From: an uncultured virus (IMG/VR IMGVR_UViG_3300016472_001095)
Taxonomy: Duplodnaviria; Heunggongvirae; Uroviricota; Caudoviricetes
Direction: 5' to 3' (one strand)
DNA length: 64,000 nucleotides
IMG/VR virus record: IMGVR_UViG_3300016472_001095
The notes under the pieces are model-generated. The model was not told the origin of the DNA and did no database searches. It worked only from the letters and a program-made list of their open reading frames with translations. Shown piece after piece: positions 11,273 to 61,555 of this stretch. Within the stretch, counting starts at the first letter, position 1, and each line of letters starts with the position of its first letter. Both the position numbers and the translations under genes were made by a program.

Positions 11273-11292
11273 TTTTAATATATCATAAGAGA

Positions 11293-13790: not shown

Positions 13791-13820
13791 TTAAGCAAAT
13801 AAAGTTATTATTATTATTCT

Positions 13821-27126: not shown

Positions 27127-27167
27127 AAAATTAAAAAGTTTTATCCAAAAAAACATAAATACTTTAT

Positions 27168-29465: not shown

Positions 29466-29480
29466 TAGATAAATAATTTT

Positions 29481-36178: not shown

Positions 36179-37810
36179 ATGGCTACAGCTATTACACCAG
36201 AAATTGCATCAGGAAAAGTACCTCCTCTGGGGTCAGAGAAGCGCACAACTAACATAATAAATAATAATCCATACAAATTTAATGTAAGTCTTATTACAGC
36301 AGACGGAAGATATCAAGAGCTTAGAATAGGTGCTATAAATTCGTTAGTTATAGAAGACACCTTTACAAATTTCTACCATAAAGGCTACATTATACTGAAT
36401 AATACCTTTGATGCATTAGAGAGAATTGTAGAGATGGAGAAACCAAGAGATCAATCGTCTGGTAATTCAGCTAATTCTGTCTCAAAGCAAAAAGGGTTTT
36501 TAATGAGAGGAGATTCACGAGATTTATTAGTCGTAGATATAATGCCTATATTTGATGACGATAAAGATAGTGTTGATACATCTATGAATGACGAAGATGC
36601 AAACAAAGCATTTTTAATTTCAATAGTTTTTAGTATTTACAACACTGAAGAAGTTATAGGTTCATCACCCGGGCAAAAGTTTAAAAAACTGTATTTTTGG
36701 GACATGCACTATGAGCTTTTAAGAGAGAAAAACTCTTACTTCTCCACTGCTAAAAGCTTTAAAGAAGGTACTCTGGTAACATCTTTAGATGATAGCGAAA
36801 GAGCTCTATATACCGGAGATGCAATAAAAGAGTTTTTACTAGATTTCTTTAAAGAAGAAGATGGTTGGCCTATTAAAATAGATGAAGAGCATTTTGATCA
36901 GGGGTCTACTAAGGTATTTTTTTCAGCTCCCGCGAGATTTAAAGGAATAGATTGTTTAGAATACTTAACTAACAGACATACTTCAAGTATAAAAAACAAC
37001 TTTGATCAAGCCTTTTTAAATATAGAAAGAAATACTTCATTATTTAGTTTTAAGAGTTTAGCCGATGTATACAAGACCGCTTTAAATAATATTTCTAATA
37101 ATAACGTAGTTTTAGGTAGTAGTTATTTAGAAACATTTAAACTAGGTGCTTATTCTGAAACATCTAATACAGAAGAAACAATGACTTTAGAAAGAGTAGA
37201 TTTCACTCCCGCAGGTGCTCTATTTTTTGATAAATATGGAACTATAAACAATTTTTCCTATGACCCTCTTCCTGGTGAAATTACCCAACACAATATTGCT
37301 CCTGTGCTAGTCCATAGCTACGATCATGACTGTAAACAATTTAATATAGATTTTGAACGCAATAGTATGCAATCTACACTGTCTACATTTAAAGAAAATT
37401 ACGTAGATACATTTAAAAAAGCTAGTAAGACATTTAACAATGTTTATGAAAATGTATTTCCTGGTGAATATAGATTAAAAAATAAGAATGTAAGAAATGT
37501 GTTTACTATTATTAATGACCCTGATCAACGACTTTCGCAAGGAAGAAACAAAGTACTATACAATTCTATTTTTATGAATAGTACCATTACTTTTAAAGTG
37601 CCCGGCTCTACTCACCGTCAAGCCGGTCATTTCATAGGATTAAATTTTGACGGCGCTTCTAACTCTAGTGAATTTAATAAAAAACTGCTAGGTGTGTATT
37701 TTCTAATTAATGTAAAACATATATTTGAAGGTAATGAATATTTCAATGAAATCCGCGCAGTTAAAACCTACAATTACGAGGATTTACTACTAAATAAGGA
37801 GAGCAGATAA
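36179..37810 (+). CDS. Baseplate hub protein (gp27-like)
   Basis: LVIEDTFTNFYHKGYIIL, FKVPGSTHRQAG, GVYFLINVKHIF hub-type motifs. Confidence 0.6.
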   Translation: MATAITPEIASGKVPPLGSEKRTTNIINNNPYKFNVSLITADGRYQELRIGAINSLVIEDTFTNFYHKGYIILNNTFDALERIVEMEKPRDQSSGNSANSVSKQKGFLMRGDSRDLLVVDIMPIFDDDKDSVDTSMNDEDANKAFLISIVFSIYNTEEVIGSSPGQKFKKLYFWDMHYELLREKNSYFSTAKSFKEGTLVTSLDDSERALYTGDAIKEFLLDFFKEEDGWPIKIDEEHFDQGSTKVFFSAPARFKGIDCLEYLTNRHTSSIKNNFDQAFLNIERNTSLFSFKSLADVYKTALNNISNNNVVLGSSYLETFKLGAYSETSNTEETMTLERVDFTPAGALFFDKYGTINNFSYDPLPGEITQHNIAPVLVHSYDHDCKQFNIDFERNSMQSTLSTFKENYVDTFKKASKTFNNVYENVFPGEYRLKNKNVRNVFTIINDPDQRLSQGRNKVLYNSIFMNSTITFKVPGSTHRQAGHFIGLNFDGASNSSEFNKKLLGVYFLINVKHIFEGNEYFNEIRAVKTYNYEDLLLNKESR

Positions 37811-37811
37811 T

Positions 37812-40193
37812 ATGGCAACTACATTTACAAGAGATACGGCGACATCTACTAGTACTATTTTAAACAAAGCTATAATGGGTATGGCTCTACCTCATGATCA
37901 AGCTAGAGATTACAGTACCTTTCTTCAGGTAATGGGTAGTAATGCAGAGCCTAACCCCGGTTTAGGCACTTCATCTAGTGTAGGCACGTTTAGTAGATCT
38001 GCAACGCCAACTGGAGGCGCACTAGTACCAAACAGTAGAGGTAAAGTTAATAGCGGTGCGCTTTATAACTTTCTAAAGCAAGAGATAGAAAATTCTAAAT
38101 TATTGGGGTTTGTTCCTAAAGACGGTAAGAAATACGGAATTGATGGATCCGGAGATTCTTATGCAGATTTCATGACTCAAACTGCTCAATGGGAATCGGG
38201 GTTTAGAGTAAATGCTAAAGGCGATGTTGGAAGATATAGGGGCGGTTCTAATGGTTTATTCCAGCTGTCACCTGACGACGCTCTTACGTATAAAATTCAA
38301 AAAACACCTTTTACTATTCAACAGCTACAAGACCCGGCTTTAAACGCCAGGGTTGCTGTAAAGATATTAGAAGATAACGTATTGAGAGACGGTGTAATGG
38401 TAGGTCAATCAGGCCCAAGCACGTTTTTAGGGGCTTCAGCTTATTGGGGCCCTCACAGACCAAATAGACCTTCAGATCAACGTATAAAAATAACTCCTGG
38501 TAAATTTATACCCGCTAGTACAGCTGCTAAAGATATAGAATCAGATACTGTACAAACGCTTAGTAGAATATCTACAGAATATAAGAGAACATTAACGTCA
38601 CCGGCGCCTGTAAATCAGCGTACTATATTTTTTACTAGTTTTGACGGTAAGGTAATATCAAATAATTTAGATAATAGACATGCGTTTGATTACTTTAGGG
38701 CTTTTTCATCACAAGCAGAATCCATGTATGAATCTGTACCTAGTAGTTTATTTGATGAAGATTCCTTTTTAAGCCCCCCTAGCGATTCGCTAGGGTTTTT
38801 CTCAACAAATGTGTTTCCTAAGTTTACGCCAGGTGTTGCTCCTGCTTGGGATTTTAATAGCTTTGGAGCTATACAAGACAATAATGCTTTAATTTTTTCA
38901 AAAGATACTTGGTCTACTAGCTATGGCGGACCTTACATGTTTGCTGGTAATAATGTTCAAAAAGTTTCAGATAACACTTACATGATGACTGTTGATATGA
39001 GTGATATAACTCAATCTCTGCATAATTATAATTTTCAAAATATAGTAAGAAAAAATCAGAGTAGTGATGTATTTGGTGGAGGAGATCAAACCCAGTCTTC
39101 TCAACTAGTAGGAACTACTGATTTACCAAGCTACATAGATCATTACAATAATAAAAGCTATTACCTAGAAGATTTTAAAGGGCTTTTTCCTAATACTTTT
39201 GAGTATATATCATATTTTAACACAGTAAACGATAATCCTGGCTATAATCCCCGTGATTATAAGAGTAAAAATCTTGAAAAAATGGAAGATATATATGCAG
39301 AACTCAATGTTGAGGGTCAAATTATAAAAGTCGACCTACTTTTAAAAAAATATAAGAAACCTGTTAGTAACAGAAGTATAAAAAGATCATTATGTTTATG
39401 TGAAGGGTGTGGAGAAGCTAAAGATAACCAGGAAGGCGGCGAAACTCTAGATACAGCTACGATAAATAAAAGATTTCTAGAGCAAGGAACCACAAGAGGC
39501 GGGTTAGAAAGTGCTAAAACAAAGGGTTTATTTAGTGCTAATAGAGGAGCATTAGAAAGTGCTAAAGTAAAGGGAATTTTAAATAGTAATCTCTCAATAT
39601 TTGACAAAGCTGAAGATAAATTAGAACAGGCTAGAGAAGCTTTTTCACTACCTCAACAAAAAGTTGCAGAGTTACAAGCTAAAATAAGTCAGGTAGGTAT
39701 TAATAATATTCCAGGACTACAGGATATTACTAGTCCTATTAATGATTTGTTGGGATCGGCGTCAGGGCTAACATCTATATTACAGACGCCTTTAAATCTT
39801 CCTAACATTCTACCCTCTGTTGACGCCGGTTCTTTCCCTCAAATTGCAGGATTGCTAATGAATACTAATTGGAAGAACTTGGATGTAGGTAGTACTGTAG
39901 AAATTGCAAAACAATTAAATACTATTTTATGCGATTTTAGATTACCAATTATAGGTAAAATAGAATGGGAAGATATTTTCGATATTGATATTGAGGATTT
40001 TGATATTGGAGAAGAATTTGATAAGTTTATTCAAGGGTTTAAAAAGAAATTTGATAAACTCTTTACAGATCTGCAAGATAAATTTAAGAATTTATTGCCT
40101 AATTTCTTTAAGAACTTAGAAAACTTCTTTAAAGACATATTTACTTGCGACGAAAAACCTAATGTTAAAGATTCAGATAAAAAAGTTAATTAA
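37812..40193 (+). CDS. Tail-associated protein with lytic transglycosylase (SLT / lysozyme-like) domain
   Basis: WESGF (catalytic E-S), SNGLFQL, LQDPALNARVAVKIL. Occupies the position after the hub where gp5 is expected. Confidence 0.7.
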   Translation: MATTFTRDTATSTSTILNKAIMGMALPHDQARDYSTFLQVMGSNAEPNPGLGTSSSVGTFSRSATPTGGALVPNSRGKVNSGALYNFLKQEIENSKLLGFVPKDGKKYGIDGSGDSYADFMTQTAQWESGFRVNAKGDVGRYRGGSNGLFQLSPDDALTYKIQKTPFTIQQLQDPALNARVAVKILEDNVLRDGVMVGQSGPSTFLGASAYWGPHRPNRPSDQRIKITPGKFIPASTAAKDIESDTVQTLSRISTEYKRTLTSPAPVNQRTIFFTSFDGKVISNNLDNRHAFDYFRAFSSQAESMYESVPSSLFDEDSFLSPPSDSLGFFSTNVFPKFTPGVAPAWDFNSFGAIQDNNALIFSKDTWSTSYGGPYMFAGNNVQKVSDNTYMMTVDMSDITQSLHNYNFQNIVRKNQSSDVFGGGDQTQSSQLVGTTDLPSYIDHYNNKSYYLEDFKGLFPNTFEYISYFNTVNDNPGYNPRDYKSKNLEKMEDIYAELNVEGQIIKVDLLLKKYKKPVSNRSIKRSLCLCEGCGEAKDNQEGGETLDTATINKRFLEQGTTRGGLESAKTKGLFSANRGALESAKVKGILNSNLSIFDKAEDKLEQAREAFSLPQQKVAELQAKISQVGINNIPGLQDITSPINDLLGSASGLTSILQTPLNLPNILPSVDAGSFPQIAGLLMNTNWKNLDVGSTVEIAKQLNTILCDFRLPIIGKIEWEDIFDIDIEDFDIGEEFDKFIQGFKKKFDKLFTDLQDKFKNLLPNFFKNLENFFKDIFTCDEKPNVKDSDKKVN
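39495..39590 (+). repeat. Imperfect 48 bp tandem duplication within the CDS
   Basis: RGGLESAKTKGLFSAN / RGALESAKVKGILNSN, with shared core ttagaaagtgctaaa. Confidence 0.75.
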
Positions 40194-48561: not shown

Positions 48562-51500
48562 ATGGTATCTAATAATAGATTTATTGATGAGAAGCTATCA
48601 GTATCCATTACTTCTCTTGTTGCACCATCAAACCCTGTAGATAGCAATAAGCCTTTATCTTTTCAAGAATGGCTAAAATATAATAATTCTTTATTCACTA
48701 ATGCAGACGACTTTTTATCTAGATATCAATCTTATCTTAATAATTGGTATGAGATAAAAAATATTGCTAAGCCTGAGCAGGTTGCTATAACTAAATCACT
48801 TTACACCTTATTAATTAATGAAATTGTACTTTCCTTTACTTCTACAGATGAAAGACGGTTTTTAAAAAATATTGATTTTAATAATAATAGAGATCTAGCT
48901 GTTGCTGTACCTTTTTTTGCTAAAAAAATTAAAGATATATGCTTATATTACAGTACATTAAGAGATGACGTTAAATCTTCTGTTGTACAGTACAATTTAA
49001 AAGGTTCTATTTACGGTACAAAAAACTTAATTTATAATCAAATATCAAAGTCATTAGAAACTGAAGATTTGACAGACTTAATTAGAACTTTAAACTACTC
49101 TTTATCAGATATTAGAAATAATATGGTGGTAGATATAGAAGAGCTATATGATACTAATCAAAACTATTTTGATGTTAGCCCTTACCTTCCTGCATCATCT
49201 TATGATGTCACAGAAGGTGAAAGAGAAAAATATTTTTCTGTTAATCAGTACGATATTGACCCAAATTTGTTTTTAAACTTTGATACTTCAATAGTAGATG
49301 CAATTACGTCTTACCCGTTCTTTTTGCTAGAGTTTGGTACTAATAATTTTTCTGCTAACATACCAGGTCTTTCTTCTGAATCGCTAAACTATCTCAAAGA
49401 TAGAGATTATATTAATACTGTTAACACAGAAGACAGAGACAATTTAAATCTTAATTTAAATTTAAACCAAATTACAAAGTTTATAGGTACTGATTTTTAC
49501 TATATATCTACCAATTCTACTGGGGTAGAGTATCTTTCCGGTAGACTGTTTGTTGCAGATAATAATTTTGCAAATTATCTTAATAAAAGATACCCATCTG
49601 TAGCAGCTATCCCGTCTTCTGAATTTATTAAATCAGGTAAAGATATAGGGCTTTTTTTTAAGCCTGATAAATTAGGGTTATCTAACTTCTACAGCTTTGG
49701 ACTAGCTACGACAATTAAAAACTCAGTATTAAGTGCAGATACTGTATATGTGTTTCCAGATCCTTCTATTTACGGAGACATTTCTAGTTTAACTGAAGAG
49801 GAATTTAACTCCCCCATTGTTTATACAGACTTATCTTATTTTAATAAAATAGATTTTTCAAATCAATTTAAATTTGGTGATACTATAAGCGGGCCTTATT
49901 TTCAAACTTTAAGAGCATATCAAGCACGTGAACAATCACTTGGCATAGGACTACAGGGGCTATCAAGATATACAGATTCACAAGATTTTTTTGAAGGGTA
50001 TAAGAAAAATGTTTGGTCTAACAAAGATGTTTTTCCTATTATACCACAAAATGTTTTTCCTATAGATAATAGAATAGAAAAACTATATTCAATTAATAAA
50101 ACTATTACACAGCAAAAATCTGATATTTACGGTAACGATTATGTATTATATAAAGACGTTGAACCTTTAAAAAGACTATCTAATACCCCAACTAATCAAG
50201 GCGGATTAAAAATTTATTACTGCCTTTACATTGATGGGCATGTCTTTTTTGATGCTATTTCCGGCTACAACTTTGATTATACTGAATATTTACCTGCAAA
50301 AAATTATACAGGCATTCTATTAAAAACTACAACAAACATCCCACCAGGCACAGGGTATTATGTGCAGGGTCCTAATTATCTCACACCATCACCTCTTTCT
50401 GCTTCAAAATACAACAACGGTATTCCGGAATTTACTTTACCCTCATTAACAGCCGTTATAGTTTCATACAGATTTCAACCCGATACATTCTGCCCTGATG
50501 AGATAAAAGTTAAGTTTGATTGTAGTGTTTACGACGGCGAAACTTTTGTATCACCTGCAAGCGGTCTTTTACCCGATACTTCATCCGACGAGCCAACTTT
50601 TGATCCCGAAATAGCAAATGTTTATTATGGTATTTTAGTCGACGGTGGTGTTAATCCTAACGGTCCAGATTATAGAGCTAATTTTGTTTACCCTGGAGAA
50701 TTTACCTTTACCCCACCGGTGTCTGCAGTAGAAGATGTTAACGGTAGTATTTTTGCTTATAATAGTGCTTCCCCTTGCGGTGATGATAATGTGTTTTCAG
50801 TATCCTATATTGAAAAGAGTAATTTCATGGATTATAAAATTCCTTTTAGAAATACACAGGTTATAGAAGGGCTTTCAGGTATTGATTCTAAGAGAACGTT
50901 ATATGAAACTAATTTTATAGATTATGGTCAACTTTATTATAGAAATTCTAATTCTTCTATAGTAGGTCCAGCATCAGCTGCATTAAGCGGAATGTATTTA
51001 AAGTATAGTGTTAATATTGTAAATGAACTTAATAATAATCTAATTAACTTTGATATTGTATACGACACTATTATATTTGAAACAGAAAATTATCTTATAG
51101 CGGACAAGCTTGTATTCGATTATGAGCAAAATAAAAACATAGATATATCAAAAAATGATTGTTATTTTCAGCGTAATGCCAATAAAGAGTTAGAAAAAAT
51201 TTCTACTATATGGTATAACGAAGAAATAGATACGTTTTTCTTCTGTAAAACTGTATTATATAATCAGCTTAGCGCAACTAATTATAAAATAGTTTATCCT
51301 GAAATTTATGCAATTAATGCTTCGAATTTAACTTTTAATAAAATTTATCCTCAAGTTTCTAATTCTGAATTAACTATAGATTACTTAAAAATGTTTTCAT
51401 TATCTGGAAATAATATTGAAGTTAATATTATCAAAATAGATAAACCTTTATTTAATTATAATAATGAAACAGGTCTATACACTATTACCTGGCTAGGTAA

Positions 51501-51705
51501 AGATATTGCAAATAGCTTCTACATATTTAAAACATTCTTTAAATATATTAATGGCGTTATAACTAATATTAGCAATTCAATGTTTAAACTACTTCCAAAT
51601 GTTAATACTATTAATTTTACAGGCGCTCTTTCTTCTTACTATGCAACACAAAACATTGCTGGTGAAGTAGGTGAAGTAACGAACGGAGAATTTATCTTTA
51701 ACTAA
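48562..51705 (+). CDS. Large virion structural protein (baseplate/fibre region)
   Basis: 1047 aa, TAAATA(48551)-5-ATG, structural module context. Confidence 0.6.
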
Positions 51706-51706
51706 T

Positions 51707-54103
51707 ATGCCTACATTTTATCAAACAACTTCTGCAGACAAGACATCTATTTTGTATGATTTTAAAACTATAGATACGTCAAGAGACGTAGTTATATCTT
51801 TTGACTATAATTGTTCACTATTTAACTCTACAGGAGTTGATGGGTTTAGTCTTTTTTTAGCTGAAAGTATTAATGCTCCAGTGGGAGGTGCTGTTGGCCC
51901 GGGGTTAGGCGCAACATCCTTAGTAGCACTATCTACTGTAGGTTATTTTACTAACCCTTTACCGCCTTTTGATCTTCTGCCTGTAAACGTTCCAGTTGTT
52001 TTTAATGGTGCTGAAACTAGTGCACTTGTAATAGGTTTTGATATAAGTGGTAGATTTGGCTCTGGTAATTATTACGGGTTAAACGGACCTTCACAAGAAA
52101 TACCTAATACAATAACTTTAAGAGGAGGTAAAGATCAAGGATTTCAATTTCTTTATAAAACACCTCAACTGAATACTTCTGCATTCGAAGAGCCTTTCTA
52201 TCTTTATACTGCTTCAGCTACAGCATTCAATACATTTAGAGCAAGACTAACAAATTTAGGTAAAACTATTATTTTAGATCATAAGATTGGAACAGGTAAA
52301 TATAATAATATTTTTAGTTATAATCTACCATATTTTCTTCCTCAATATGTGTATCCATGTCTAGGATTCAGTACAAATATAGATTTTAATACAATAAATT
52401 TACGCGTAAAAAACTTTCATGAAAACGGATTTTTTGTAACACCTACTAATACACCATCATGGACACCCACAGTTACGCCTACACCTACAGTTACGCCTAC
52501 TAGAACCGCTACTCCCACGGTTACACCTACTAATACAGTTACACCGTCTGTTACGCCTTCTAATACCGTTACACCTTCCGTCACACCTTCTAATACCGTC
52601 ACACCATCAATAACCCCGTCTAATACAGTTACTCCTTCTATTACACCTTCCAATACTGCTACGCCATCAGAAACACCTACTAACACGCCTACGCATTCAG
52701 AAACACCTACCAACACGCCTACACCAACAGAAACACCTACCAACACACCCACACCCACTCAAACAGTAACACCTACAGTAACGCCTTCTAATACACGTAC
52801 GCCAACAGCAACGCCGACTAGAACTGTAACACCTACAGTAACGCCTTCTAATACTGCTTCACCTACGGTAACCCCGTCTATAACACCGACCAATACACGT
52901 ACTCCTACGGTCACACCGTCCGTCACTCCTTCAGCTACAAATATTAACTATACGGTATTCCCATCTAATCAAACAAATATTATTATTAATGATAATACTG
53001 TTGCAACCCCGTATCCTGTAGAATTTACAGTTTCAGGTATTACAAGAATAGTAGATAAGATTACTATAAAGTTAATAAACTATAATCATGATTTTGCTGC
53101 TGACGTTGCTATGTTGTTAGTAGCACCTAATGGTCAATCAACCATCGTAGTTGGCAGGGTAGGCGAAGGCCCCGCTATTAATGTAGACGTAATGCTAGAT
53201 CAAAATGCAAGCCAAGCTTGGGATGGTTATTCATCAGGTACTTACAAGCCTAATACAATATCGGATGATTTCCCATTCGACAATATAAATGGGTGCCCCG
53301 TTGGCCCTTATAATACATCGCTTGACACATTCTTCTATATGTCACCAGGTGACGTTAATGGTACCTGGAAATTATACATACAAGACTTTGCACCTGTTGA
53401 TGTAGGGACTATGCAAAGCGCACAGTTATATGTATATCAAGTATCACCATTTGCATCACCTACACCTACTGCTTCGCCTACTGTTACGCCTTCAGTTACA
53501 CCCACAATAACACCTACATTCCCTCTACCTACATCAAGCGTAACACCTACTAATACTCCTACAGTTACTAATACGCCTTCACCTACAGTAACGCAATCAC
53601 AAATAGACTATATTTCATTCCTATCGAGTACCAGTAATCTCATTATAAATGATGAAAGTATAGCTACTCCTTATCCACTCACATTTAATGTCTCTGGGCT
53701 AGCATCTACATATTCTAGAGTAACTGTACAATTAAGCGGGTATAATCATGACTTTACTGAAGATGTTGTCATGCTTCTTGTTTCTCCTACTAATACTACT
53801 TGTTTATTAGCCGGTAGAGTTGGTTTAAATTCTGCCGTTGATACTACAGTAGTATTAGATCAAAGCGCATCTATTGCTTGGGATGGGTATAGTTCAGGGT
53901 ATTACAAACCTAACACTACTTCTAATACATTTGCAATGAGTAGTAATAACGGTTGCCCCGCAGGCCCGTATAACACAACATTAAATATATTTAACAATAT
54001 AAATTCTGCAAACGCCAACGGTACTTGGAAGCTATATATTCAAGACTTTGCATTCGGAGATATTGGCAGCCTTAGCAACGCTACTTTAAGATTCCATTCA
54101 TAA
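51707..54103 (+). CDS. Adhesin-like virion protein: lectin-like N-domain, mucin-like Thr/Pro/Ser stalks and two proprotein-convertase P-like domains
   Basis: DGFSLFL...GPGLG...IGFD legume-lectin-like motifs. Long TPT/TPS tracts. Duplicated domain ending [14 protein letters not shown] (P-domain signature). Confidence 0.75.
52439..52940 (+). repeat. Thr/Pro/Ser-rich coding repeat (about 10 aa / 30 bp units such as [20 protein letters not shown])
   Basis: Direct reading of the translation. Synonymous positions have diverged between units. Confidence 0.92.
53455..53595 (+). repeat. Second Thr/Pro/Ser-rich coding tract
   Basis: [21 protein letters not shown]...[17 protein letters not shown] between the two P-like domains. 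Confidence 0.85.
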
Positions 54104-54111
54104 ATTTTTAT

Positions 54112-54145
54112 TTGATTTAAATACATTGTGTATTAAAATATTAAA
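54112..54145 (+). promoter_or_regulatory. Sigma70-type promoter, leaderless geometry, for the glycosylation operon
   Basis: TTGATT(54112)-16-TAAAAT(54134)-6-GTG(54146). Confidence 0.7.
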
Positions 54146-55414
54146 GTGAAAAATAACAAAGAATTAATTTTTATTTCAATAGCTTCATATAGAGATCCGC
54201 AGTTAGTACCTACTTTAAGAGATTGTGTTGCCAATGCTAAATATCCTGAAAATTTAAGGTTTAATATTTGTTGGCAAAAAGACGAGAAGGAATCATTAGA
54301 AGAGTTTACAAATGATTCGAGAGTTAAATACATTGAAGTTCCTTATAACGAGAGCAAAGGGACATGCTGGGCAAGAAGCAGAATTCAAGATAATTATGAT
54401 GGTGAAAAATATTATTTACAGCTAGACAGTCATCATCGCTTTGTAAAAGATTGGGATGAAAAATGTATTGGAATGGTCAAGCAACTTCAAAAGAAAGGAC
54501 ATAAAAAGCCTCTGCTAACTGGTTATATTTCTAGTTTCAATCCAGATAATGATCCCGCTGAACGTATACAAATACCATGGAAAATGAATTTCGATAGATT
54601 TATACCAGAGGGAGCAGTTTTCTTTTTACCCGCATCAATCGACGATTATAAAGAACGAACTGAACCGCTACCAGCAAGATTTGTTTCAGCTCATTTTATT
54701 TTTACACTTGGTAAATGGGTAAAGGAAGTTCCTTACGATCCTAATTATTATTTTCATGGTGAAGAAATTAACCTTGCTGTGAGATCATTTACTTGGGGAT
54801 ATGACTTATTTCACCCTCATATGGTAATCGCATGGCATGAATATACTAGACGAGGAAGAACGAAACACTGGGATGATGTTAAGGAATGGGGCGAATTTAA
54901 CAGACTTTCGCACCTACGTAATCGTAAATTGTTTGGTATGGATGGTGAGATCGATGATATTAAGTGGGGAAAGTATGGATTTGGTAAGAAGAGAACATTA
55001 CAGGATTATGAAAAATATTCCGGTCTTTGTTTTAAAAAGCGTGCAGTTCAAAGATGGACGCTAGAAAATAAACTAGCACCAAATCCTAATGACAATCTTA
55101 GTGCGGAAGAATATGAAAAGTCTTTCTTAAAGATATTTAAGCATTGTATTGATGTCGGATATGACAAAGTGCCTGAAAAAGACTATGACTTTTGGTGTGT
55201 AGCATTTAAAGATAAAGAAGGTAAAGATGTATATAGAAAAGATGCTGATAGAGCTGAAATAGATAGAATGTTTAATGATCCGGACAAATATTGTAAGATT
55301 TGGCGTGAGTTTAATGCAGAAGAAATGCCTCATAGCTGGATTGTATGGCCTCACAGTGTATCTAAAGGGTGGTCAGATCCTATAACTGGTGTAATAGGTA
55401 ATAAAGTCAGCTAA
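54146..55414 (+). CDS. GT60-family polypeptide N-acetylglucosaminyltransferase (Skp1 Gnt1-like)
   Basis: IFISIASYRD, GTCWAR, YYLQLDSHHRF..WD (DSH motif), VPYDP..YFHGEE...RSFTWGYDLFHP, HEY. Confidence 0.87.
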   Translation: MKNNKELIFISIASYRDPQLVPTLRDCVANAKYPENLRFNICWQKDEKESLEEFTNDSRVKYIEVPYNESKGTCWARSRIQDNYDGEKYYLQLDSHHRFVKDWDEKCIGMVKQLQKKGHKKPLLTGYISSFNPDNDPAERIQIPWKMNFDRFIPEGAVFFLPASIDDYKERTEPLPARFVSAHFIFTLGKWVKEVPYDPNYYFHGEEINLAVRSFTWGYDLFHPHMVIAWHEYTRRGRTKHWDDVKEWGEFNRLSHLRNRKLFGMDGEIDDIKWGKYGFGKKRTLQDYEKYSGLCFKKRAVQRWTLENKLAPNPNDNLSAEEYEKSFLKIFKHCIDVGYDKVPEKDYDFWCVAFKDKEGKDVYRKDADRAEIDRMFNDPDKYCKIWREFNAEEMPHSWIVWPHSVSKGWSDPITGVIGNKVS

Positions 55415-56187
55415 TGAAATACACGTATTGTATTGCATCAGAGGCTCATTATCCTAACTATACGAAAAGAGTTAAGGAGAACAGTCTTAAATCATACTTT
55501 AACCTTGAACTTGACAAAAAAAATATACCATATTATATTTCAACAAACAGAATTCAGGATTTTGATGAATTCAAGGACCACCCTACAGTAAAAATAATAG
55601 ATATTAACGAAGCAAGAAGAGATGTTCCCGAATCTTTTAATTACGAGCTTTATCCCGACGACCCCACGGGTATCTACCCGGCTAGATATCCATGGAACAT
55701 GCGTAGATTTTTAGTTAGACGCGCCGGACTGGACGGGCTTTGTGGCTGCTATGTAATAGATGCTGATTCTGTTAGTCACCCTTCAATTAGTAAGGATAAT
55801 TTTGTAGATCATATGGATAAAATATATGAGCCTAAGGTCTGTGGGTCAAATGCTGCTATATTTAAATATTCTCCCGGCTCTACATTTGAAGTGTTTGCGA
55901 GACATGATGCTTATATAAAGCATTTCGGGTTTACATTTACACCCGATCAGTATACTACTATAGACGGCCCGGCAATGTTTTTTATGGGCGAGACTAGTCA
56001 AGATCTTATTAATTTATATGAGAAATGGAATTTCTTTGCTTTGTTTGGCTATAAAAAGGAGTTTGGCTTCGGTTGTGAAAGTAATTTCCATACCAATCTA
56101 TCATTTACATTTCCTTCTGTTGGCTTTACAGTAAAGGAAAAGCCTCTACCTTTTTATCCTGAGCATCATTATGAGGATAGATATTAA
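55414..56187 (+). CDS. Putative glycosyltransferase (GT-A, DxD)
   Basis: YPWNMRRF followed by YVIDADS. TAATG-coupled within the GT operon. Confidence 0.55.
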   Translation: MKYTYCIASEAHYPNYTKRVKENSLKSYFNLELDKKNIPYYISTNRIQDFDEFKDHPTVKIIDINEARRDVPESFNYELYPDDPTGIYPARYPWNMRRFLVRRAGLDGLCGCYVIDADSVSHPSISKDNFVDHMDKIYEPKVCGSNAAIFKYSPGSTFEVFARHDAYIKHFGFTFTPDQYTTIDGPAMFFMGETSQDLINLYEKWNFFALFGYKKEFGFGCESNFHTNLSFTFPSVGFTVKEKPLPFYPEHHYEDRY

Positions 56188-56837
56188 TGAAACTTCTTAT
56201 TAAGTTTCCTAGCAGAGGCAGGCCTGAAAAATTTAAATCAACGTTCGAGCAGTATTATAGATTACTCTCTAATAAGCGTGAAGTAAAGTTTGTTTTTACA
56301 TTTGACACAGATGACGAGACTATGAATAACGATATTATTAAGAATTTTTTACAACTTTACTCTAATATTTGCGAGATTAATTACGGTGATAGTAAAAATA
56401 AAATTGAAGCTATTAATGCTAATTTACAGGATAAGCAATTCGACGTCTTATTACTCGCTAGTGACGACTTAATTCCCTATGTTCAAAATTATGATGATAT
56501 AATTTGTAGTCACATGGAAGAATTTTTTCCCGATACTGATGGCAGTATTCAATATTATACACCTATGTGGGCAGATACATTAGATATTATGTGCATCTTA
56601 GGATTTAAGTATTTTAAAAGATTTAATTACATTTACCACCCTGCTTATAAAGGGTTATTCTGTGATAACGAATTTACTGACATTAAAAAGAAGCTAAACA
56701 AAAATAAATTTGTTTGCCAACAACTATTTGATCATAATTATACTTCAGGCGATCCTACTTCATGGAGAAGTAATTTTTTTCAACATGAAGATTGGCGAGT
56801 TTATGAAGATAGAAAATTACGCAATTTTGATCTATAA
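56187..56837 (+). CDS. Glycosyltransferase (GT2-like)
   Basis: IKFPSRGRP, FDTDD, KIEAIN, LLASDD, YHPAY...FCDNEF. Confidence 0.75.
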   Translation: MKLLIKFPSRGRPEKFKSTFEQYYRLLSNKREVKFVFTFDTDDETMNNDIIKNFLQLYSNICEINYGDSKNKIEAINANLQDKQFDVLLLASDDLIPYVQNYDDIICSHMEEFFPDTDGSIQYYTPMWADTLDIMCILGFKYFKRFNYIYHPAYKGLFCDNEFTDIKKKLNKNKFVCQQLFDHNYTSGDPTSWRSNFFQHEDWRVYEDRKLRNFDL

Positions 56838-56839
56838 TT

Positions 56840-58360
56840 ATGTTTTCAATCTCTAACGTAGCTTTTGCAGATAAGGGGTTTTACATTAATCTCGATTCGT
56901 CTTTAGATAGAAGAAATCACGTAGAAAAGCAAATAGAAAAATTCAATATTAAAAATATTGAAAGGTTTTCAGCTTTAACTGATGAATTACGCCAATGCAC
57001 TGCTACTAAAAGTCAAAAAGCAGTATTTGAAAAAGCTATTAGCGAAAATTTAAATACTGTGTTTATTGCTGAGGATGATTTTGATATATTAGAGAATATT
57101 AAGCAGTACAATAATAATACTGTTTCTCTAGAAGACCACCTAAAAGAATTAAAAGTAGAATTAGATACTTTAGACTGGGACATATTTCTTTTTGGTTGCA
57201 CCCCAAAAACATTTTTAATACCTTATACTAAAAATATTAGCAAGGTTCATAAAAGTACAGGAGCCTGGGGTTATCTTATTAAAAAAGAAGCAATGCAATA
57301 TATTTTAGATAATTTTAATTACAAAAGAGATTATTTAGCAATAGACGATATTTTACCTATTTTAAATTTTAGAGGTTTTAAAACTTTTTGCGCATCACCG
57401 ATTACGATTCACCATGCTAAAGGGTTCGAATCTACATTGAACCCTCGAGGACCAGTTAACTATGATAATATGATAGATGGTAGCTACCACAAATATCTAG
57501 AAGGATTTATTAAAGATGATTATTTAGATCAATATTATTTAGAGCGTAACTTAACAATAGTAGTCGCAGGGCACTTTGCAGAGAATTTTTTATATTATTT
57601 GAGATATTTACTATTTAGTTTGCCTGAAGAAATTACTAAGTGTAAATTCCTCGTATATTACGATCACAATCCTAATATAGAAAATCCCATATTACCACTT
57701 TTACATTATTTTTATAATAGAAATCGTACAATTACCTATGATATTAAGTTTGTAAAGTATGGTTTGATAGACACTGTTAAGACAATGCTACAAGACATAA
57801 CTACTCCATACTTTATGTTTTTAGAGCATGATTGGGTATTTTTAAGAAAAGACAATATTAACTTTAAATCTATACTAAAAGCATTTGATAAATATGACTT
57901 TATACATTCTGTTTACTTGAATAAAGATGACAATAATTTAAGAGGCTTTGAAATTTGCCAAGATAAAACGGGTGCTACATCACCATTTCAATTGGAAGAT
58001 AGAGTTAAGGAAATAAACTTAATTACAACTTGTAGATGGTCTAATAACCCCTGTATACATAGAACAAGTAAATATAAAGAATGGTATACAACATATTTGG
58101 ATTCTGTACATAATAATGTCGGTCATGGCCAACATGATGTAGAAGAAGTAATGATACCCGCTTATAGAGACGTTATTTCTAAATCTAACTGGATTGACAT
58201 TAGAGATAATTGGGGTACATATTTATATGGTAATATTGGTGAAGGACCATACGTTGGTCATACAGATGCTTCTAGAAGATATCTTACATCAGCAAGATCT
58301 CAGCCAGAAGAAAATGGTGATGAATTTATAAAGAACAACCCTCTTCCCGAACATGATTAA
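56840..58360 (+). CDS. Bifunctional glycosyltransferase (GT25-like N-domain + GT2-like C-domain)
   Basis: YINLDSSLDRR, ERFSA, IAEDD, TGAWGYLI, IDD (GT25). TPYFMFLEHDW, WSNNP, HTD (second GT-A domain). Confidence 0.78.
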   Translation: MFSISNVAFADKGFYINLDSSLDRRNHVEKQIEKFNIKNIERFSALTDELRQCTATKSQKAVFEKAISENLNTVFIAEDDFDILENIKQYNNNTVSLEDHLKELKVELDTLDWDIFLFGCTPKTFLIPYTKNISKVHKSTGAWGYLIKKEAMQYILDNFNYKRDYLAIDDILPILNFRGFKTFCASPITIHHAKGFESTLNPRGPVNYDNMIDGSYHKYLEGFIKDDYLDQYYLERNLTIVVAGHFAENFLYYLRYLLFSLPEEITKCKFLVYYDHNPNIENPILPLLHYFYNRNRTITYDIKFVKYGLIDTVKTMLQDITTPYFMFLEHDWVFLRKDNINFKSILKAFDKYDFIHSVYLNKDDNNLRGFEICQDKTGATSPFQLEDRVKEINLITTCRWSNNPCIHRTSKYKEWYTTYLDSVHNNVGHGQHDVEEVMIPAYRDVISKSNWIDIRDNWGTYLYGNIGEGPYVGHTDASRRYLTSARSQPEENGDEFIKNNPLPEHD

Positions 58361-60662
58361 TATACAAAAAATTTTAAATTTTAATAACAAAAAGTTTGAT
58401 CCTTCTATTGTTAATTCAGATCAAATTAAATATATTGTAACTTATCTTGCAGAAGCTATAGAAAGCCTGGAAGGCGATGTTGTTGAATTGGGATGTTACG
58501 TAGGAGAGACCAGTAAGTACATTTCAAAAACATTAGAAGTTGCTAATTCTAATAAAAGCTTTTTTGTATTTGATTCGTTCGAAGGGCTTCCTGATTTGTC
58601 TAAATTTGAAGAAGGCACAGGGTGGAAGCCGAGGACTTTAAACACTACAGAAGAAGTATTGACAGAAAATTTTACTATTAATAACGTAAAATTGCCAATT
58701 ATAACTAAGTCTTGGTTTAAAGATATTAGGGACGATCAGCTTCCCGAAAAAATATGCTTTGCATTTTTAGATGGTGATTTTTATACCTCTATTTTTGATA
58801 GTTTAGAAAAAATTTATAACCGAGTAGTTGATGGCGGGTATATTTTAGTTCATGATTATAAGCGTAATGATTTACCCGGGGTAGAAGCTGCAATATTAGA
58901 ATACTTTAGATTGAATAATATAGAACTTAATATTATAGAAATATGCGAACAGCTAGCTGTTATTTGCAAAAACAAAGAAATCAAAAAGATTGAACCCTCA
59001 AAGTCAAAATTCACTATTGTCACAGGCCTTTGGGATATTGGCAGAGATAAGCTCAAGGAAGGATGGTCTAGAGGCTATTCTCACTACTTAAATAAATTAG
59101 AGGAGCTTTTGAAAGCTGATTTTAATTTAATTATTTTCGGTGATGAAGAATTAGAAAAGTTTGTTTTTGAGAGAAGAGAACACTATAATACTCAATTTGT
59201 TAGACGAGATTTAAATTGGATTAAAAACATGCCATTTTTTAATAAAATTCAAGAAATTAGAACGGACCCTAATTGGTATAATCAAGCCGGTTGGTTATCT
59301 GAATCTACACAAGCAAAGCTCGAGCTCTATAATCCATTAGTAATGAGTAAAGTATTTTTGCTCAACGACGCTAAAATTTTAGATAAATTTGATTCTGAGT
59401 TTCTCTTTTGGCTAGATGCTGGTATAACAAACACAGTACATTATGGGTATTTTACACATGATAAAGTACTAGAAAAGCTACCTAAATTTTTAGAGAAGTT
59501 TTTATTTATAAGCTTTCCTTATCCCGATGGTGGAGAAATACATGGGTTTTCTAGAGAAAAAATGAATGAATTAGCGGGCGTTGAAAATGTTGAATATGTC
59601 TGTAGAGCCGGTTTTTTTGGCGGCCCTAAAGCATCAATCTCCGAAATTAACAGTATATATTATACTTTGTTAAACAACACACTTAATGATGGGTATATGG
59701 GAACAGAAGAAAGCATCTTTACATTAATGACATATCTCCACCCCCATCTTTTTACAAGAGTTTCAATAGACGGCAACGGACTTTTAAGTAAGTTTTTTGA
59801 GGACCTTAAAAACCTAGATATTTCAGAAAAAAATATTGATTTGGATAGTAGAGTACTCTCCGGTGTAAGCATATATGTCATAACATTTAATTCGCCAAAG
59901 CAATTTGAAATTCTATGTGAATCGTATTTAAAGCATCCAGGGTTTTTAAAAGAAACTAAAAATTATCTATTAGATAATAGCACGGATGAATCTACATTTG
60001 AAAAATATAAATTGTTGTGTGAAAAATATAATTTTGAGCACATTAAAAAAGACAACTTAGGTATATGTGGCGGTAGACAATTTATTGCAGATCATTTTAA
60101 TGAAAGTGATTCTAAGTATTGTATCTTTTTGGAGGATGATATGGGGCTTTGTGAGCAAACTACAGATCTTTGTAGAAATGGTTTCCCAAGATATACAGAT
60201 AATTTATTTTACAAATTAGTAAAAATAATGGATATAGAAAAGTTTGATTTTCTTAAATTGTCGTTTAGTGAATTTTTTGGAGATAACTCAATACAATGGG
60301 CTTGGTATAATGTACCCCAGGTAGTTCGCGAAAGATTCTGGCCTCATAACAAAAAGCTACCAAAAATGGGTCTAGACCCTAATGCACCTAGAACAGAATT
60401 TAAAAATATAGATTTTATTGATGGGCTTGGTTATATTACAGGAGATATATATTACTGCAATTGGCCTCAAATAGTATCTAAGGAAGGCAATAAAAAAATG
60501 TTTATTGAAACTAAATGGGCATCGCCATTTGAACAAACATGGATGTCTTATATGTATCAGCTTACTAAGGAAAATAAATTAAAAGGCGCGTTGTTATTAC
60601 TGTCTCCTATTGAACACAATAGATTTGATCATTACTCTAGAGAATTACGTAGAGAAAACTAA
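58353..60662 (+). CDS. Tri-domain protein: TylF/MycF-type sugar O-methyltransferase + HtrL-like glycosyltransferase + GT2-like domain
   Basis: GDVVELGCYVG, FDSFEGLP, WFKD, FAFLDGDFYTS, HDY..LPGV (TylF). TIVTGLWDIGR, MSKVFLL, FWLDAG, FFGG, GTEE (HtrL-like). LLDNS, NLGICGGRQF, FLEDD. Confidence 0.82.
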   Translation: MINIQKILNFNNKKFDPSIVNSDQIKYIVTYLAEAIESLEGDVVELGCYVGETSKYISKTLEVANSNKSFFVFDSFEGLPDLSKFEEGTGWKPRTLNTTEEVLTENFTINNVKLPIITKSWFKDIRDDQLPEKICFAFLDGDFYTSIFDSLEKIYNRVVDGGYILVHDYKRNDLPGVEAAILEYFRLNNIELNIIEICEQLAVICKNKEIKKIEPSKSKFTIVTGLWDIGRDKLKEGWSRGYSHYLNKLEELLKADFNLIIFGDEELEKFVFERREHYNTQFVRRDLNWIKNMPFFNKIQEIRTDPNWYNQAGWLSESTQAKLELYNPLVMSKVFLLNDAKILDKFDSEFLFWLDAGITNTVHYGYFTHDKVLEKLPKFLEKFLFISFPYPDGGEIHGFSREKMNELAGVENVEYVCRAGFFGGPKASISEINSIYYTLLNNTLNDGYMGTEESIFTLMTYLHPHLFTRVSIDGNGLLSKFFEDLKNLDISEKNIDLDSRVLSGVSIYVITFNSPKQFEILCESYLKHPGFLKETKNYLLDNSTDESTFEKYKLLCEKYNFEHIKKDNLGICGGRQFIADHFNESDSKYCIFLEDDMGLCEQTTDLCRNGFPRYTDNLFYKLVKIMDIEKFDFLKLSFSEFFGDNSIQWAWYNVPQVVRERFWPHNKKLPKMGLDPNAPRTEFKNIDFIDGLGYITGDIYYCNWPQIVSKEGNKKMFIETKWASPFEQTWMSYMYQLTKENKLKGALLLLSPIEHNRFDHYSRELRREN

Positions 60663-60703
60663 TTTAGTACGTTTAAATACGTGTATTTTAAGTAAATAAT
60701 AAT

Positions 60704-61555
60704 GTGAATTATGTAAATTACGTTTTGTCGAGCGTACAAATTCCCGGATATCCTTCTGTATTAAATCATTATATTTTTATTGACCCTGTACTAGGAACTT
60801 CTATTAATTGGCCTGCCTGTGCAAACGGAAGCTTTTTTTCTGAAACAACCGGCACGTTTGTATACCCCGCAACTGCTAAAGGCGGTTTATTTTTCCCTTG
60901 GGGTTATTCAGTTGAAAACACCACACTTACAGCAGATTTAGGCATATTTAAAGGGCAGGTAACTCTTTTAATTAGCCCCTCAGCTATAGATAATACGTAT
61001 TTTACAACATTAAAAATAATTTACGATTTTAATGATAATGAGATTATTAACATTGAAAAGGGTATTGTAGAAAATATTTTACCAGGCAATGTTGCTTTTC
61101 TTGATGCTGGCAACCCAAACGATAAAAATATATCACACGTATATACATCAAAATCATTAAGCGGGACAACTTATTATCCAACTATTACTGTTTTAAACGG
61201 TAATATGGCATTAAGTGTTTTTAATTTAAAGCTTTCACTTCTACCTGGCACAGTATTCGATTTTGAAGATTTTCATCTAATAAATACCTCACAGCTTTCT
61301 AGGTTTGACGCACCGCAATTTAAATCATTAGAAGTGTTTGAATTAGATGAAGAAAACAATAATTTTGTATCAAATTTTCTTTTAATAAGCTCTTATCCCA
61401 CCCCTACGCCTTCCTACACGCCAGTGCCCACCCCTACACCATCAATTACCCCTACTATAACACCTACTATTACTCCTACTAAAACTGTTACGCCTACGAT
61501 AACACCCTCACCATCTATTACACCTACTATAACTCCATCGAGGTCGAGTTTATAA
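60704..61555 (+). CDS. Virion protein with C-terminal mucin-like Thr/Pro/Ser tail
   Basis: TAAATA(60693)-5-GTG. C-terminus PTPTPSYTPVPTPTPSITPTITPTITPTKTVTPTITPSPSITPTITPS. Confidence 0.7.
   Translation: MNYVNYVLSSVQIPGYPSVLNHYIFIDPVLGTSINWPACANGSFFSETTGTFVYPATAKGGLFFPWGYSVENTTLTADLGIFKGQVTLLISPSAIDNTYFTTLKIIYDFNDNEIINIEKGIVENILPGNVAFLDAGNPNDKNISHVYTSKSLSGTTYYPTITVLNGNMALSVFNLKLSLLPGTVFDFEDFHLINTSQLSRFDAPQFKSLEVFELDEENNNFVSNFLLISSYPTPTPSYTPVPTPTPSITPTITPTITPTKTVTPTITPSPSITPTITPSRSSL
61396..61540 (+). repeat. Thr/Pro/Ser-rich coding repeat (TPTI/TPSI, 12 bp units)
   Basis: Direct reading of the sequence. Confidence 0.85.

Follow-up and report, generated by a model that had tools for sequence, protein, structure and literature searches.

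The uncultured-virus record IMGVR_UViG_3300016472_001095 of the IMG/VR database carries a cassette of five genes, headed by a predicted glycosyltransferase of family GT60, that lies between two genes encoding proteins with long threonine/proline/serine (Thr/Pro/Ser) tracts. Here, we analyze 64,000 bases of this record, called the window throughout (bases 71904-135903 of 139,594; the CheckV completeness of the record is 66%). Coordinates are those of the window unless stated otherwise. Matches to PHROG families identify the virus as a distant T4-like myovirus. Specifically, its products include a family-B DNA polymerase, UvsX, a DnaB-like helicase, a gp32-like single-stranded-DNA-binding protein (SSB), a clamp loader, the large terminase, a sheath protein, a pair of tube-like proteins, hub proteins of the baseplate, and wedge proteins of the gp25-like and gp6-like types. 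The DNA polymerase shares only ~30% identity with its counterparts in cultured cyanophages and Sinorhizobium phages, and megablast finds no nucleotide match to the cassette region among cultured phages. The G+C content is ~0.29-0.38 across the window.

All five cassette genes lie on the plus strand. Neighboring genes overlap by 1, 1, or 8 bases, or are separated by a 2-base gap, and thus form one tightly packed unit, with the coordinates (54146-60662) given in an earlier, model-generated reading of the letters (hereafter, the sequence-only reading). That reading's family assignments, GT60, GT25, TylF, and HtrL, all score above the Pfam cutoffs (Table 1 and below).

The first gene encodes the proposed initiator. 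Its product matches GT60 profile PF11397 with 231 bits against a cutoff of 21 (E = 3.6e-68) and phrog_24687 with E = 2.5e-166, and a whole-genome search with PF11397 returns the same single gene. The protein possesses a DxH motif (D94-S95-H96) that is invariant in 23 phage sequences. According to the available text of PMC7185993, DxH is the hallmark of GT27 and GT60, two families with a common way of O-glycosylating Ser/Thr in polypeptides. Maximum hydropathy is 0.78, and phmmer finds no solved relative in the PDB. The last ~120 amino acids (aa) of the protein, residues ~300-422, form a conserved extension that matches no family and may be an acceptor-recognition domain.

The remaining genes supply further candidate transferases and a methyltransferase. 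The 257-aa protein lacks a Pfam match. Its AlphaFold model (pLDDT 76.7, from a 5-sequence alignment) retrieves only GT-A glycosyltransferases when compared with the PDB by Foldseek (E from 5e-5, TMq 0.4-0.48), with K4CP (chondroitin polymerase), alpha-1,3-GalT (a galactosyltransferase) and the blood-group transferases GTA/GTB, and WbbM at the top; as judged from the model, a GT-A fold glycosyltransferase is well supported. The 216-aa protein is a glycosyltransferase lead only: it matches phrog_14945 ("glycosyltransferase") at 3.9e-8, has no Pfam match, and has exclusively viral ESM Atlas neighbors, one cluster of which contains 12% GT2 members. The 506-aa protein begins with a GT25 domain (PF01755, 31.5 bits against a cutoff of 24 for the whole protein; 38.6 bits, 1.3e-9 for the half alone). 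Its C-terminal half has no Pfam match and viral ESM Atlas neighbors, including one cluster with 25% GT2, and is possibly GT2-like, again as a lead only.

The 769-aa protein is a three-part fusion of a TylF domain, an HtrL_YibB domain, and a C-terminal GT-A domain. The TylF match is strong (PF05711, 78.7 bits against a cutoff of 23, 5.5e-22; 82.7 bits, 3.3e-23 for the segment alone). The central domain passes the Pfam cutoff for HtrL_YibB (PF09612, 57.6 bits against 24.1, 2e-15) and falls below the NCBIfam equivalog threshold (TIGR02192, 58.4 bits against 264.9), and thus belongs to the HtrL_YibB family without being a YibB equivalent. A 23-sequence HtrL_YibB profile searched against PDB sequences returns a best E of 0.16, to unrelated proteins, and hhalign assigns probabilities of 0.6% and 1.0% to its comparison with two GT-A alignments (A1 and A4). 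The C-terminal domain lacks a Pfam match. Its model (pLDDT 87.5, pTM 0.87) retrieves only GT-A enzymes from the PDB (E from 8e-8), among them the LH3 glycosyltransferase domain, B4GALNT1, GlfT2, POMGnT1, Mimivirus R699, GnT-I, and TarP/TarS, and this prediction, too, is well supported. The sequence-only reading had counted about seven glycosyltransferase domains. The tally is four that are well supported, two on leads, and one family, HtrL_YibB, of unproven activity, for which transferase status was not borne out by the PDB profile search or hhalign.

None of the five cassette proteins possesses a membrane segment or a signal peptide, and the cluster contains no Pfam match to a flippase, a polymerase, a lipid-carrier priming enzyme, or an ABC exporter. 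This combination fits a soluble acceptor. A role in envelope polysaccharide synthesis finds support neither in the gene content nor in the solubility of the products.

Table 1. Coordinates of the features discussed. Positions refer to the window unless marked as genome coordinates or preceded by a locus handle.
Feature	Position	Strand	Evidence or remark
Conserved 1047-aa tail-module protein; heads late unit with first Thr/Pro protein	48562..51705	+	TAAATA-N5-ATG at start
798-aa protein with two Thr/Pro/Ser tracts; candidate substrate	51707..54103	+	starts 2 bases past upstream stop
Tract 1 of 798-aa protein, residues 242-412	52430..52942	+	84 Thr+Ser, 36 TP dipeptides
Tract 2 of 798-aa protein, residues 579-632	53441..53602	+	
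Early-type promoter of GT60 gene	54112..54148	+	TTGATT-N16-TAAAAT-N6-GTG; ends at GT60 start codon
GT60 glycosyltransferase, 422 aa, soluble; proposed initiator	54146..55414	+	PF11397, phrog_24687
C-terminal extension of GT60	55040-55414		no family match
257-aa GT-A fold protein	55414..56187	+	structure model; no family match
216-aa glycosyltransferase candidate	56187..56837	+	PHROG; weak evidence
506-aa protein	56840-58360	+	
GT25 domain, N-terminal half of 506-aa protein	56840..57499	+	PF01755
GT2-like candidate, C-terminal half of 506-aa protein	57500..58360	+	ESM Atlas lead
769-aa fusion protein	58353-60662	+	
TylF-type O-methyltransferase, residues 36-198 of 769-aa protein	58458..58946	+	PF05711
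HtrL_YibB domain, residues 219-469 of 769-aa protein	59007..59759	+	PF09612
C-terminal GT-A domain (283 aa) of 769-aa protein	59811..60662	+	alignment (invariant E-D-D), structure model
Late motif at start of downstream 283-aa Thr/Pro protein	60693..60706	+	TAAATA-N5-GTG
283-aa protein with C-terminal Thr/Pro/Ser tract; candidate substrate	60704..61555	+	tract residues 225-283, nt 61376-61552
Early-type starts	1335 (glycosyltransferase), 5385, 11293 (DnaB-like), 13821 (SSB), 15104, 54146 (GT60)		
Late-type starts (include)	26512 and 29481 (tube), 27168 (sheath), 31800 (hub), 32579 (tape-measure-like), 48562, 60704, 61565		
Close -10-like elements (examples)	1301-1337, 11259-11295, 13787-13823, 27156-27170, 29470-29483		
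Bacterial islands: twin-arginine-signal tract protein next to GT60 and HtrL/GT2 protein	L182:8525-9670, L192:8959-9747, L196:7997-9751, L204:8645-9625, L207:11298-11849, L208:6816-7454, L203:11411-12115		
Gemmatimonadaceae tract proteins with PqqD-like N-terminus	L187:3839-4471, L188:8510-9235		directly upstream of GT60
2OG-Fe(II) oxygenase, Lewinellaceae	L196:7374-7997		PF13640
Tube-like paralogs	26512-27126, 29481-30029		both phrog_45
Further sugar-related genes (glycosyltransferases, RmlD-like, cytidylyltransferase-like)	1335-2555 (1335 is a glycosyltransferase), 10580-11272, 16535-17371; genome 50157-51041, 53291-54088 (outside window)		
QueC	6862-7632		
7-Deazaguanine genes outside window	genome: QueF 37392-38306; QueE-like 55779-56543; QueD 57437-58090; GTP cyclohydrolase I 60210-60863		

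Tract-bearing neighbors and promoter classes

The two genes that border the cassette encode its candidate substrates, and the Thr/Pro/Ser tracts that the sequence-only reading had described in both are present (Table 1). Tract 1 of the upstream 798-aa protein is 39% Thr and 22% Pro, and the same protein matches the P-domain profile PF01483 (44.4 bits; best stretch, residues 679-796). Its N-terminal domain looked lectin-like, a suggestion that we dropped because no Pfam match appeared even at E up to 5. A PDB match to 8zvk_A reflects the low-complexity tract only and was ignored. Neither flanking protein possesses a signal peptide or a membrane segment, and their non-tract domains have no homolog among cultured phages. 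The cassette is placed between tail-module genes, downstream of the gp6-like baseplate wedge gene. An open reading frame (ORF) counts here as a tract ORF if some stretch of 30 residues in it is at least 70% P+T+S and includes no fewer than 6 Pro and 10 Thr+Ser. Four of the 175 ORFs of the genome qualify: the two beside the cassette, a third another 5 kb along, where the contig ends, and a distant fourth next to a gene with a tail-collar domain. The gp23-type capsid gene and the tube genes are not among the four.

The sequence-only reading had assigned a sigma70-type promoter to the cassette. A generic sigma-70 scan of the window yields 98 sites compared to 97.7 expected, which is chance, and was replaced by a search for architectures anchored at gene starts, in the 60 upstream bases of each of the 64 called genes. 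Two classes emerge. The starts of six genes, GT60 and five others, mark the exact end of an early-type architecture, TTGA[TC][TA]-N15-17-T[AT]nnn[TA]-N5-8-start. A late-type motif, TAAATA-N4-7-start, which we take to resemble the T4 late promoter, ends exactly at 17. Over the whole window, the early pattern occurs 15 times compared to 8.4 in Markov simulations, and the late pattern 36 times compared to 31.5. From the window counts, ~0.004 (early) and ~0.016 (late) events would be expected to coincide by chance with the 64 start positions.

Because the architectures are shared, the cassette can be said to carry the promoter type of the replication genes, whereas the 48562-54103 unit and the genes starting at 60704 and 61565 carry that of the tail genes, with a spacing of N5-6 before the starts at 48562, 60704, and 61565. 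Among 11 loci that belong to the window's lineage, 10 keep the GT60 promoter despite a divergent spacer. Thus, the promoter claim survives in the form of a specific architecture at the GT60 start, and the proposed timing, enzymes before substrates, is supported. The flanking genes had been called late structural genes. A late class is supported by the TAAATA motif, which the unit of the 798-aa gene (at 48562) and the 283-aa gene have in common with the sheath, tube, hub, and tape-measure genes; the structural part of the description comes from their position behind the gp6-like wedge gene.

Two further observations concern the gene starts. First, in 23 of the 64 (6 early-type and 17 late-type), a -10-like element lies 5-8 bases before the start codon, with no Shine-Dalgarno-like spacing evident. 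This promoter spacing suggests that many mRNAs of the phage are leaderless or nearly so. Second, the word TTTAAATAC, present in both spacers that flank the cassette, was considered, also in a variant pattern, and set aside: it occurs 7 times in the window compared to 4.0 expected, which is not significant, and it is not conserved in relatives.

GT60 and tracts across phages and bacteria

Close relatives of the window GT60 are encoded by 311 viral stretches in IMG/VR. Among cultured phages, only four records possess a homolog, at 43-47% identity, all from jumbo phages (XacN1, Xoo-sp13, CM1, and RAS14). The best 80 of the 311 stretches (60-92% identity) together with XacN1 make up a set of 81 GT60 loci, and in this set GT60 invariably opens a series of genes on one strand. 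By iterated profile search, the HtrL domain is present in 73 loci, the C-terminal GT-A domain in 67, GT25 in 18, and TylF in 15. The 257-aa gene is found in 6 loci, the 216-aa gene in 4, and homologs of the downstream 283-aa protein in 15. The domain counts thus define a conserved core of GT60 and a ~555-aa HtrL/GT-A protein, with the remaining enzymes as lineage-specific accessories.

A tract ORF lies within 10 kb of GT60 in 56 of the 81 loci. Clustering of GT60 at 90% identity gives 50 clusters. The ORF directly upstream of GT60 is a tract ORF in 15 of them, 11 of which belong to the window's lineage, and a tract ORF lies within two ORFs upstream in 20. In the other four of the 15 (L015, L052, L075, and L077), this upstream ORF shows no BLAST similarity to the window's protein. 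The cassette lies between two tract genes in all close relatives whose sequence extends far enough. Over all 49 IMG/VR clusters, tract ORFs number 9.4 per 100 kb near GT60 compared to 5.2 further out (p = 0.017).

We also compared phages chosen independently of both GT60 and tracts, using the 1047-aa tail-module gene, whose product matches neither Pfam nor PHROG, as a neutral anchor. A scan with the single protein found only 5 loci and was repeated with a 12-sequence alignment, which found homologs in 81 viral loci (26-84% identity). These whole records were searched for PF11397 and for a DNA pattern encoding TP[TS] twice within 0-3 residues. The pattern finds 134 of 134 tract ORFs and makes 5 matches elsewhere in 2.95 Mb; records with at least 9 matches were called tract-positive. 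All 16 GT60-positive records are tract-positive, with a minimum of 25 matches, compared to 13 of the 65 GT60-negative records (the other 52 have neither; Fisher p = 2e-9), in the test that the sequence-only reading had proposed for GT60 and PT-repeat proteins across related phages. The 10 records that are at least 50% complete split 4/0/0/6 in the same way (p = 0.005). The 13 records with tracts and no GT60 are all at most 36% complete, and several stop just before the expected position of the cassette. In the anchored loci, tract ORFs number 6.69 per 100 kb for GT60-positive records and 1.89 for GT60-negative ones.

GT60 occurs in three arrangements among these phages, each time in a genome that bears tracts. 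In the window's clade, it is adjacent on the same strand. In one divergent locus (L163; anchor 27% identical), it is adjacent on the opposite strand, and the ~20 nearest relatives of this locus have neither GT60 nor a tract within 10 kb. In a third genome (G001), it lies tens of kb from the anchor on the same contig. In other phage groups, 8 of 10 GT60-positive records that are at least 47% complete contain 12-193 pattern matches (this search left out one record, L046).

GT60 is not confined to phages. When prokaryotes, at one genome for each species, are scanned with an alignment, 62 bacterial loci (33-68% identity) are found, in Saprospiraceae, Lewinellaceae, Leadbetterellaceae/Cytophagaceae (including the isolate Jiulongibacter sediminis JN14-9), Gemmatimonadaceae, Verrucomicrobia, Halieaceae, Ectothiorhodospiraceae, Desulfobacterales, Magnetococcales, and others. 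Here, too, tract ORFs gather around GT60: 16 lie at most 3 kb away and 1 further out (5.33 compared to 0.20 per 100 kb; binomial p = 1.3e-6), and they are real genes rather than wrong-frame artifacts. Of the 24 loci where the GT60 match is full-length and the flank reaches at least 4 kb, 12 have a tract ORF, compared to 3 of 21 with a match of fewer than 400 residues; these shorter bacterial matches lack the C-terminal extension of the window GT60. Of 12 bacterial tract proteins inspected, 8 display a twin-arginine motif, then a hydrophobic stretch, then the tract. We read this as a Tat signal because of the visible RR motif; Tat-signal models give a single weak match among these proteins, below the cutoff (L208). 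Two Saprospiraceae tract proteins contain a type IX secretion system (T9SS) sorting domain above the cutoff, and one from Lewinellaceae falls just below it. In two Gemmatimonadaceae proteins (L187 and L188), a PqqD-like (peptide-chaperone-like) N-terminus, below the cutoff at E ~1e-5, replaces the twin-arginine signal.

The HtrL_YibB partner (with GT2) is found beside bacterial GT60 in 9 of 11 loci scanned. Other neighbors are carbamoyltransferases, an enzyme type that also adjoins GT60 in XacN1, an FkbM methyltransferase fused to HtrL, which parallels the TylF-HtrL fusion of the window, a sulfotransferase, second copies of GT60, and, in one case, a 2OG oxygenase. These 11 islands showed no gene for a flippase, a polymerase, or a lipid carrier. 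The oxygenase, which adjoins the tract protein of a Lewinellaceae island (L196), belongs to the prolyl-hydroxylase superfamily (PF13640, 1e-6) and is the sole hint of a hydroxyproline route.

In a quick maximum-likelihood tree of 83 GT60 sequences, phage and bacterial copies interleave, and well-supported branches force at least 5 switches between them; support values are SH-aLRT only, and the bacterial part includes several long branches. The Saprospiraceae/Lewinellaceae copies have a phage clade as their sister group, and XacN1 forms a pair with a copy from Verrucomicrobia. On two short contigs within bacterial metagenome bins (L176 and L177), the GT60 is 64-68% identical to that of the window, has a G+C content of 0.29-0.31, and nests in phage clades. 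Both contigs probably represent phage DNA that was binned together with bacterial genomes.

A predicted O-glycosylation system and its closest known relatives

On balance, we lean toward the interpretation that the cassette is a phage-encoded cytoplasmic protein O-glycosylation system that preferentially modifies Thr/Pro/Ser tracts in late proteins of the phage itself, among them the products of both flanking genes. The notion is that five soluble enzymes would be made from the early-type promoter. As the late proteins appear, GT60 would transfer a first sugar to Thr/Ser of the extended tracts; by analogy with characterized GT60 enzymes, this sugar may be GlcNAc. The HtrL/GT-A partner, together with the lineage-specific GT-A, GT25, and GT2-like domains, would extend the glycan, and the TylF domain would O-methylate a sugar. 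The benefit could be protease resistance, stiffness, or mimicry of host surface glycoproteins. The argument for this interpretation is built from comparative genomics and one stained gel in a distant relative, XacN1.

Characterized GT60 enzymes, the Dictyostelium Skp1 Gnt1, the Dictyostelium Golgi mucin-type enzyme, and the Trypanosoma cruzi enzymes, are polypeptide alpha-GlcNAc-transferases. The window GT60 resembles them in its strong family match and DxH motif, in being soluble like the cytoplasmic Skp1 enzyme, and in having Thr-rich, mucin-like tracts as candidate acceptors. It differs in being encoded by a phage, in its conserved C-terminal extension, and in its pairing with an HtrL/GT-A protein, and its function is a prediction from the genes. 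A hydroxyproline route of the Skp1 type is unsupported, as no prolyl hydroxylase or 2OG oxygenase was found in the phage genome (66% complete).

To our knowledge, virion glycosylation by phage-encoded enzymes has been shown only for mycobacteriophages, in addition to the hint from XacN1. The mycobacteriophage case was reportedly shown experimentally by Freeman et al. in Cell Host Microbe in 2023, with capsid and tail-tube subunits as the substrates. In both that system and the window, phage glycosyltransferases and a methyltransferase are thought to act on the phage's own virion proteins, and the transferase genes lie within or beside structural genes. Unlike the mycobacteriophages, which reportedly use capsid and tail-tube acceptors and which infect actinobacterial hosts, the window phage employs other enzyme families, has a capsid gene without a tract, and is known from its genes alone.

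XacN1 provides the link to virions. Its ORF334 is the GT60 homolog (46.7% identity over 96% of the query), and the genome contains 147 tract pattern matches, with tracts in ORF232-237, ORF350 (beside head-completion/structural genes), ORF384, and ORF325. In the available text of PMC5852040, purified XacN1 virions display at least two Schiff-stained glycoprotein bands, and the authors propose the phage's two glycosyltransferases, one of which is ORF334, as the source. The tract ORFs are not named among the virion proteins in the main text of that paper, and the stained bands are not tied to named proteins. Moreover, GT60 is located by replication genes in XacN1, whereas it lies between tract genes in the window.

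Two other systems offer parallels. In the serine-rich-repeat adhesins of gram-positive bacteria, GtfA/GtfB prime with GlcNAc, further glycosyltransferases extend the glycan, and accessory Sec exports the product. As proposed for the window, soluble cytoplasmic enzymes prime Ser/Thr-rich repeats and several transferases extend before exit; unlike in the window, the initiators are of the GT-B fold (GT4) and export is dedicated, and none of those genes appeared in the cassette scans. Mimivirus fibrils are modified by virus-encoded glycosylation. Giant viruses likewise bring cytoplasmic glycosylation enzymes for virion surface proteins, and Mimivirus R699 is a fold match of the C-terminal GT-A domain, but their hosts are eukaryotic, their linkages and enzyme families are different, and they are not known to have a GT60-led cassette. 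Virus-encoded capsid glycosylation in the chlorovirus PBCV-1 is cited in the available text of PMC5852040. In the full-text literature, with most subscription journals outside coverage, no description was found of a GT60 system in phages or of a module in bacteria that joins GT60 with tract proteins; one preprint, in its available text, merely lists GT60 among viral auxiliary genes.

Competing explanations and implications

Several points weigh against self-glycosylation of the late tract proteins. We infer the acceptor, the donor sugar, the order of steps, the virion location, and the benefit. Both flanking proteins are placed in the virion by position and the late motif only. The early timing, which would fit enzymes that precede their substrates, would fit host- or DNA-directed enzymes equally well. 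HtrL_YibB, a member of the conserved core, displays no detectable relation to a known glycosyltransferase fold in the PDB profile search and hhalign comparisons, and the genome carries at least 4 glycosyltransferase genes outside the cassette. In XacN1, GT60 adjoins replication genes (near the DNA polymerase and RNase H) and is next to a carbamoyltransferase.

The comparative evidence, too, has its weak points. For the 38 clusters that fall outside the window's lineage, the 10-kb flanks hold 7.2 tract ORFs per 100 kb near GT60 compared to 4.8 further out (p = 0.15). Since adjacency is not significant there, the link between GT60 and tracts in phages is one at the level of the genome rather than strict adjacency. 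Two of the 10 large GT60-positive records from other groups (G085 and G096) contain only 3 pattern matches each. The 13 GT60-negative fragments with tracts indicate that tracts without GT60 are possible. Moreover, 14 of the 16 GT60-positive anchored records belong to one clade (anchor at least 51% identical), and the Fisher values thus treat the records as more independent than they are. GT60 and tracts could both track a shared host or lineage, with no functional link.

A serious rival, although one that we consider unlikely, is that the early-made cassette glycosylates the host surface, either P/T/S-rich exported proteins or envelope glycans. The consequence would be receptor masking, a block to superinfection, or progeny kept off debris. 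Such a role fits the promoter type held in common with replication genes, and the PHROGs category of the GT60 family, "moron, auxiliary metabolic gene and host takeover." Bacteria that carry GT60 and HtrL beside exported P/T/S-rich proteins reveal that a suitable host substrate can exist, and the interleaved tree, with its supported switches, is consistent with this idea. However, a host-directed role leaves unexplained both the tract richness of GT60-positive phages (the 6.69 compared to 1.89 tract ORFs per 100 kb, and the tracts in every GT60-positive anchored record) and the position of the cassette between two tract genes in close relatives, and no host substrate can be named for this uncultured phage.

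It is more doubtful still that the glycan is built on a different soluble molecule (a free oligosaccharide, for example, or a small molecule or another phage protein such as the capsid), with the tracts serving as plain linkers. Thr/Pro linkers are common spacers that need no glycan, and the GT60-negative fragments carry them. The lack of significant adjacency outside the window's lineage and the wide variation of accessory transferase genes among loci point the same way, and TylF-type enzymes methylate macrolide sugars. Against this, characterized GT60 enzymes use polypeptide acceptors (PMC7185993), the tract association recurs in several bacterial phyla with different tract proteins, and the gp23-type capsid gene is not one of the genome's four tract ORFs.

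Finally, glycosylation of phage DNA in the style of the T4 glucosyltransferases, as an evasion of restriction, is very unlikely to be the role of the cassette: the early-type promoter class of replication genes, a weak match (2.7e-4) between the C-terminal GT-A domain and a PHROG that takes its name from a T4-type DNA glucosyltransferase, and the location of the XacN1 homolog near DNA polymerase and RNase H genes would be compatible with it, but no hydroxymethyl-pyrimidine synthesis gene occurs among the 42 + 77 ORFs scanned of this 66% complete genome, which has a full 7-deazaguanine pathway instead, bacterial homologs reside in chromosomal islands beside exported proteins and not in DNA-modification contexts, and six or seven transferase domains plus a sugar methyltransferase far exceed the needs of known DNA sugar modifications.

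Other features of the genome deserve mention. The 7-deazaguanine (preQ0/preQ1) pathway comprises GTP cyclohydrolase I, QueD, a QueE-like radical-SAM protein, QueC, and QueF, a gene set that suggests deazaguanine-modified phage DNA. One of the glycosyltransferase genes outside the cassette is next to the polymerase gene behind an early-type promoter, and an RmlD-like reductase and a cytidylyltransferase-like gene also lie outside; the phage's investment in sugars is larger than the cassette alone. The two tube-like paralogs sit on either side of the sheath gene.

Virus-encoded glycosylation of a virus's own proteins is known; what would be new here is a GT60-led cytoplasmic module common to phages and bacteria. 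More tentatively than for the window itself, we speculate that GT60 and the HtrL/GT-A protein could constitute a prokaryote-wide cytoplasmic "mucin-type" O-glycosylation module for P/T/S tracts. In several phyla, bacteria would use it on twin-arginine proteins, some of them T9SS-sorted, that are able to exit the cell folded and modified. The module would have been repeatedly exchanged with phages, which would apply it to their appendages, perhaps as a host-like sugar coat, and the mucin-initiating enzymes of protists would be one branch of an old prokaryotic/viral system.

If self-glycosylation of the late tract proteins is correct, a large group of uncultured T4-like phages, represented by the 311 stretches with close GT60 relatives, coats its appendages with self-made O-glycans. 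This would bear on host recognition, on particle stability, and on how phage fibers are read from sequence. The bacterial islands represent a tractable test bed, and the module, if real, would provide a first function for prokaryotic GT60 and for the HtrL_YibB family. It would also link the enzymes that initiate mucin-type glycosylation in protists to a prokaryotic/viral origin.

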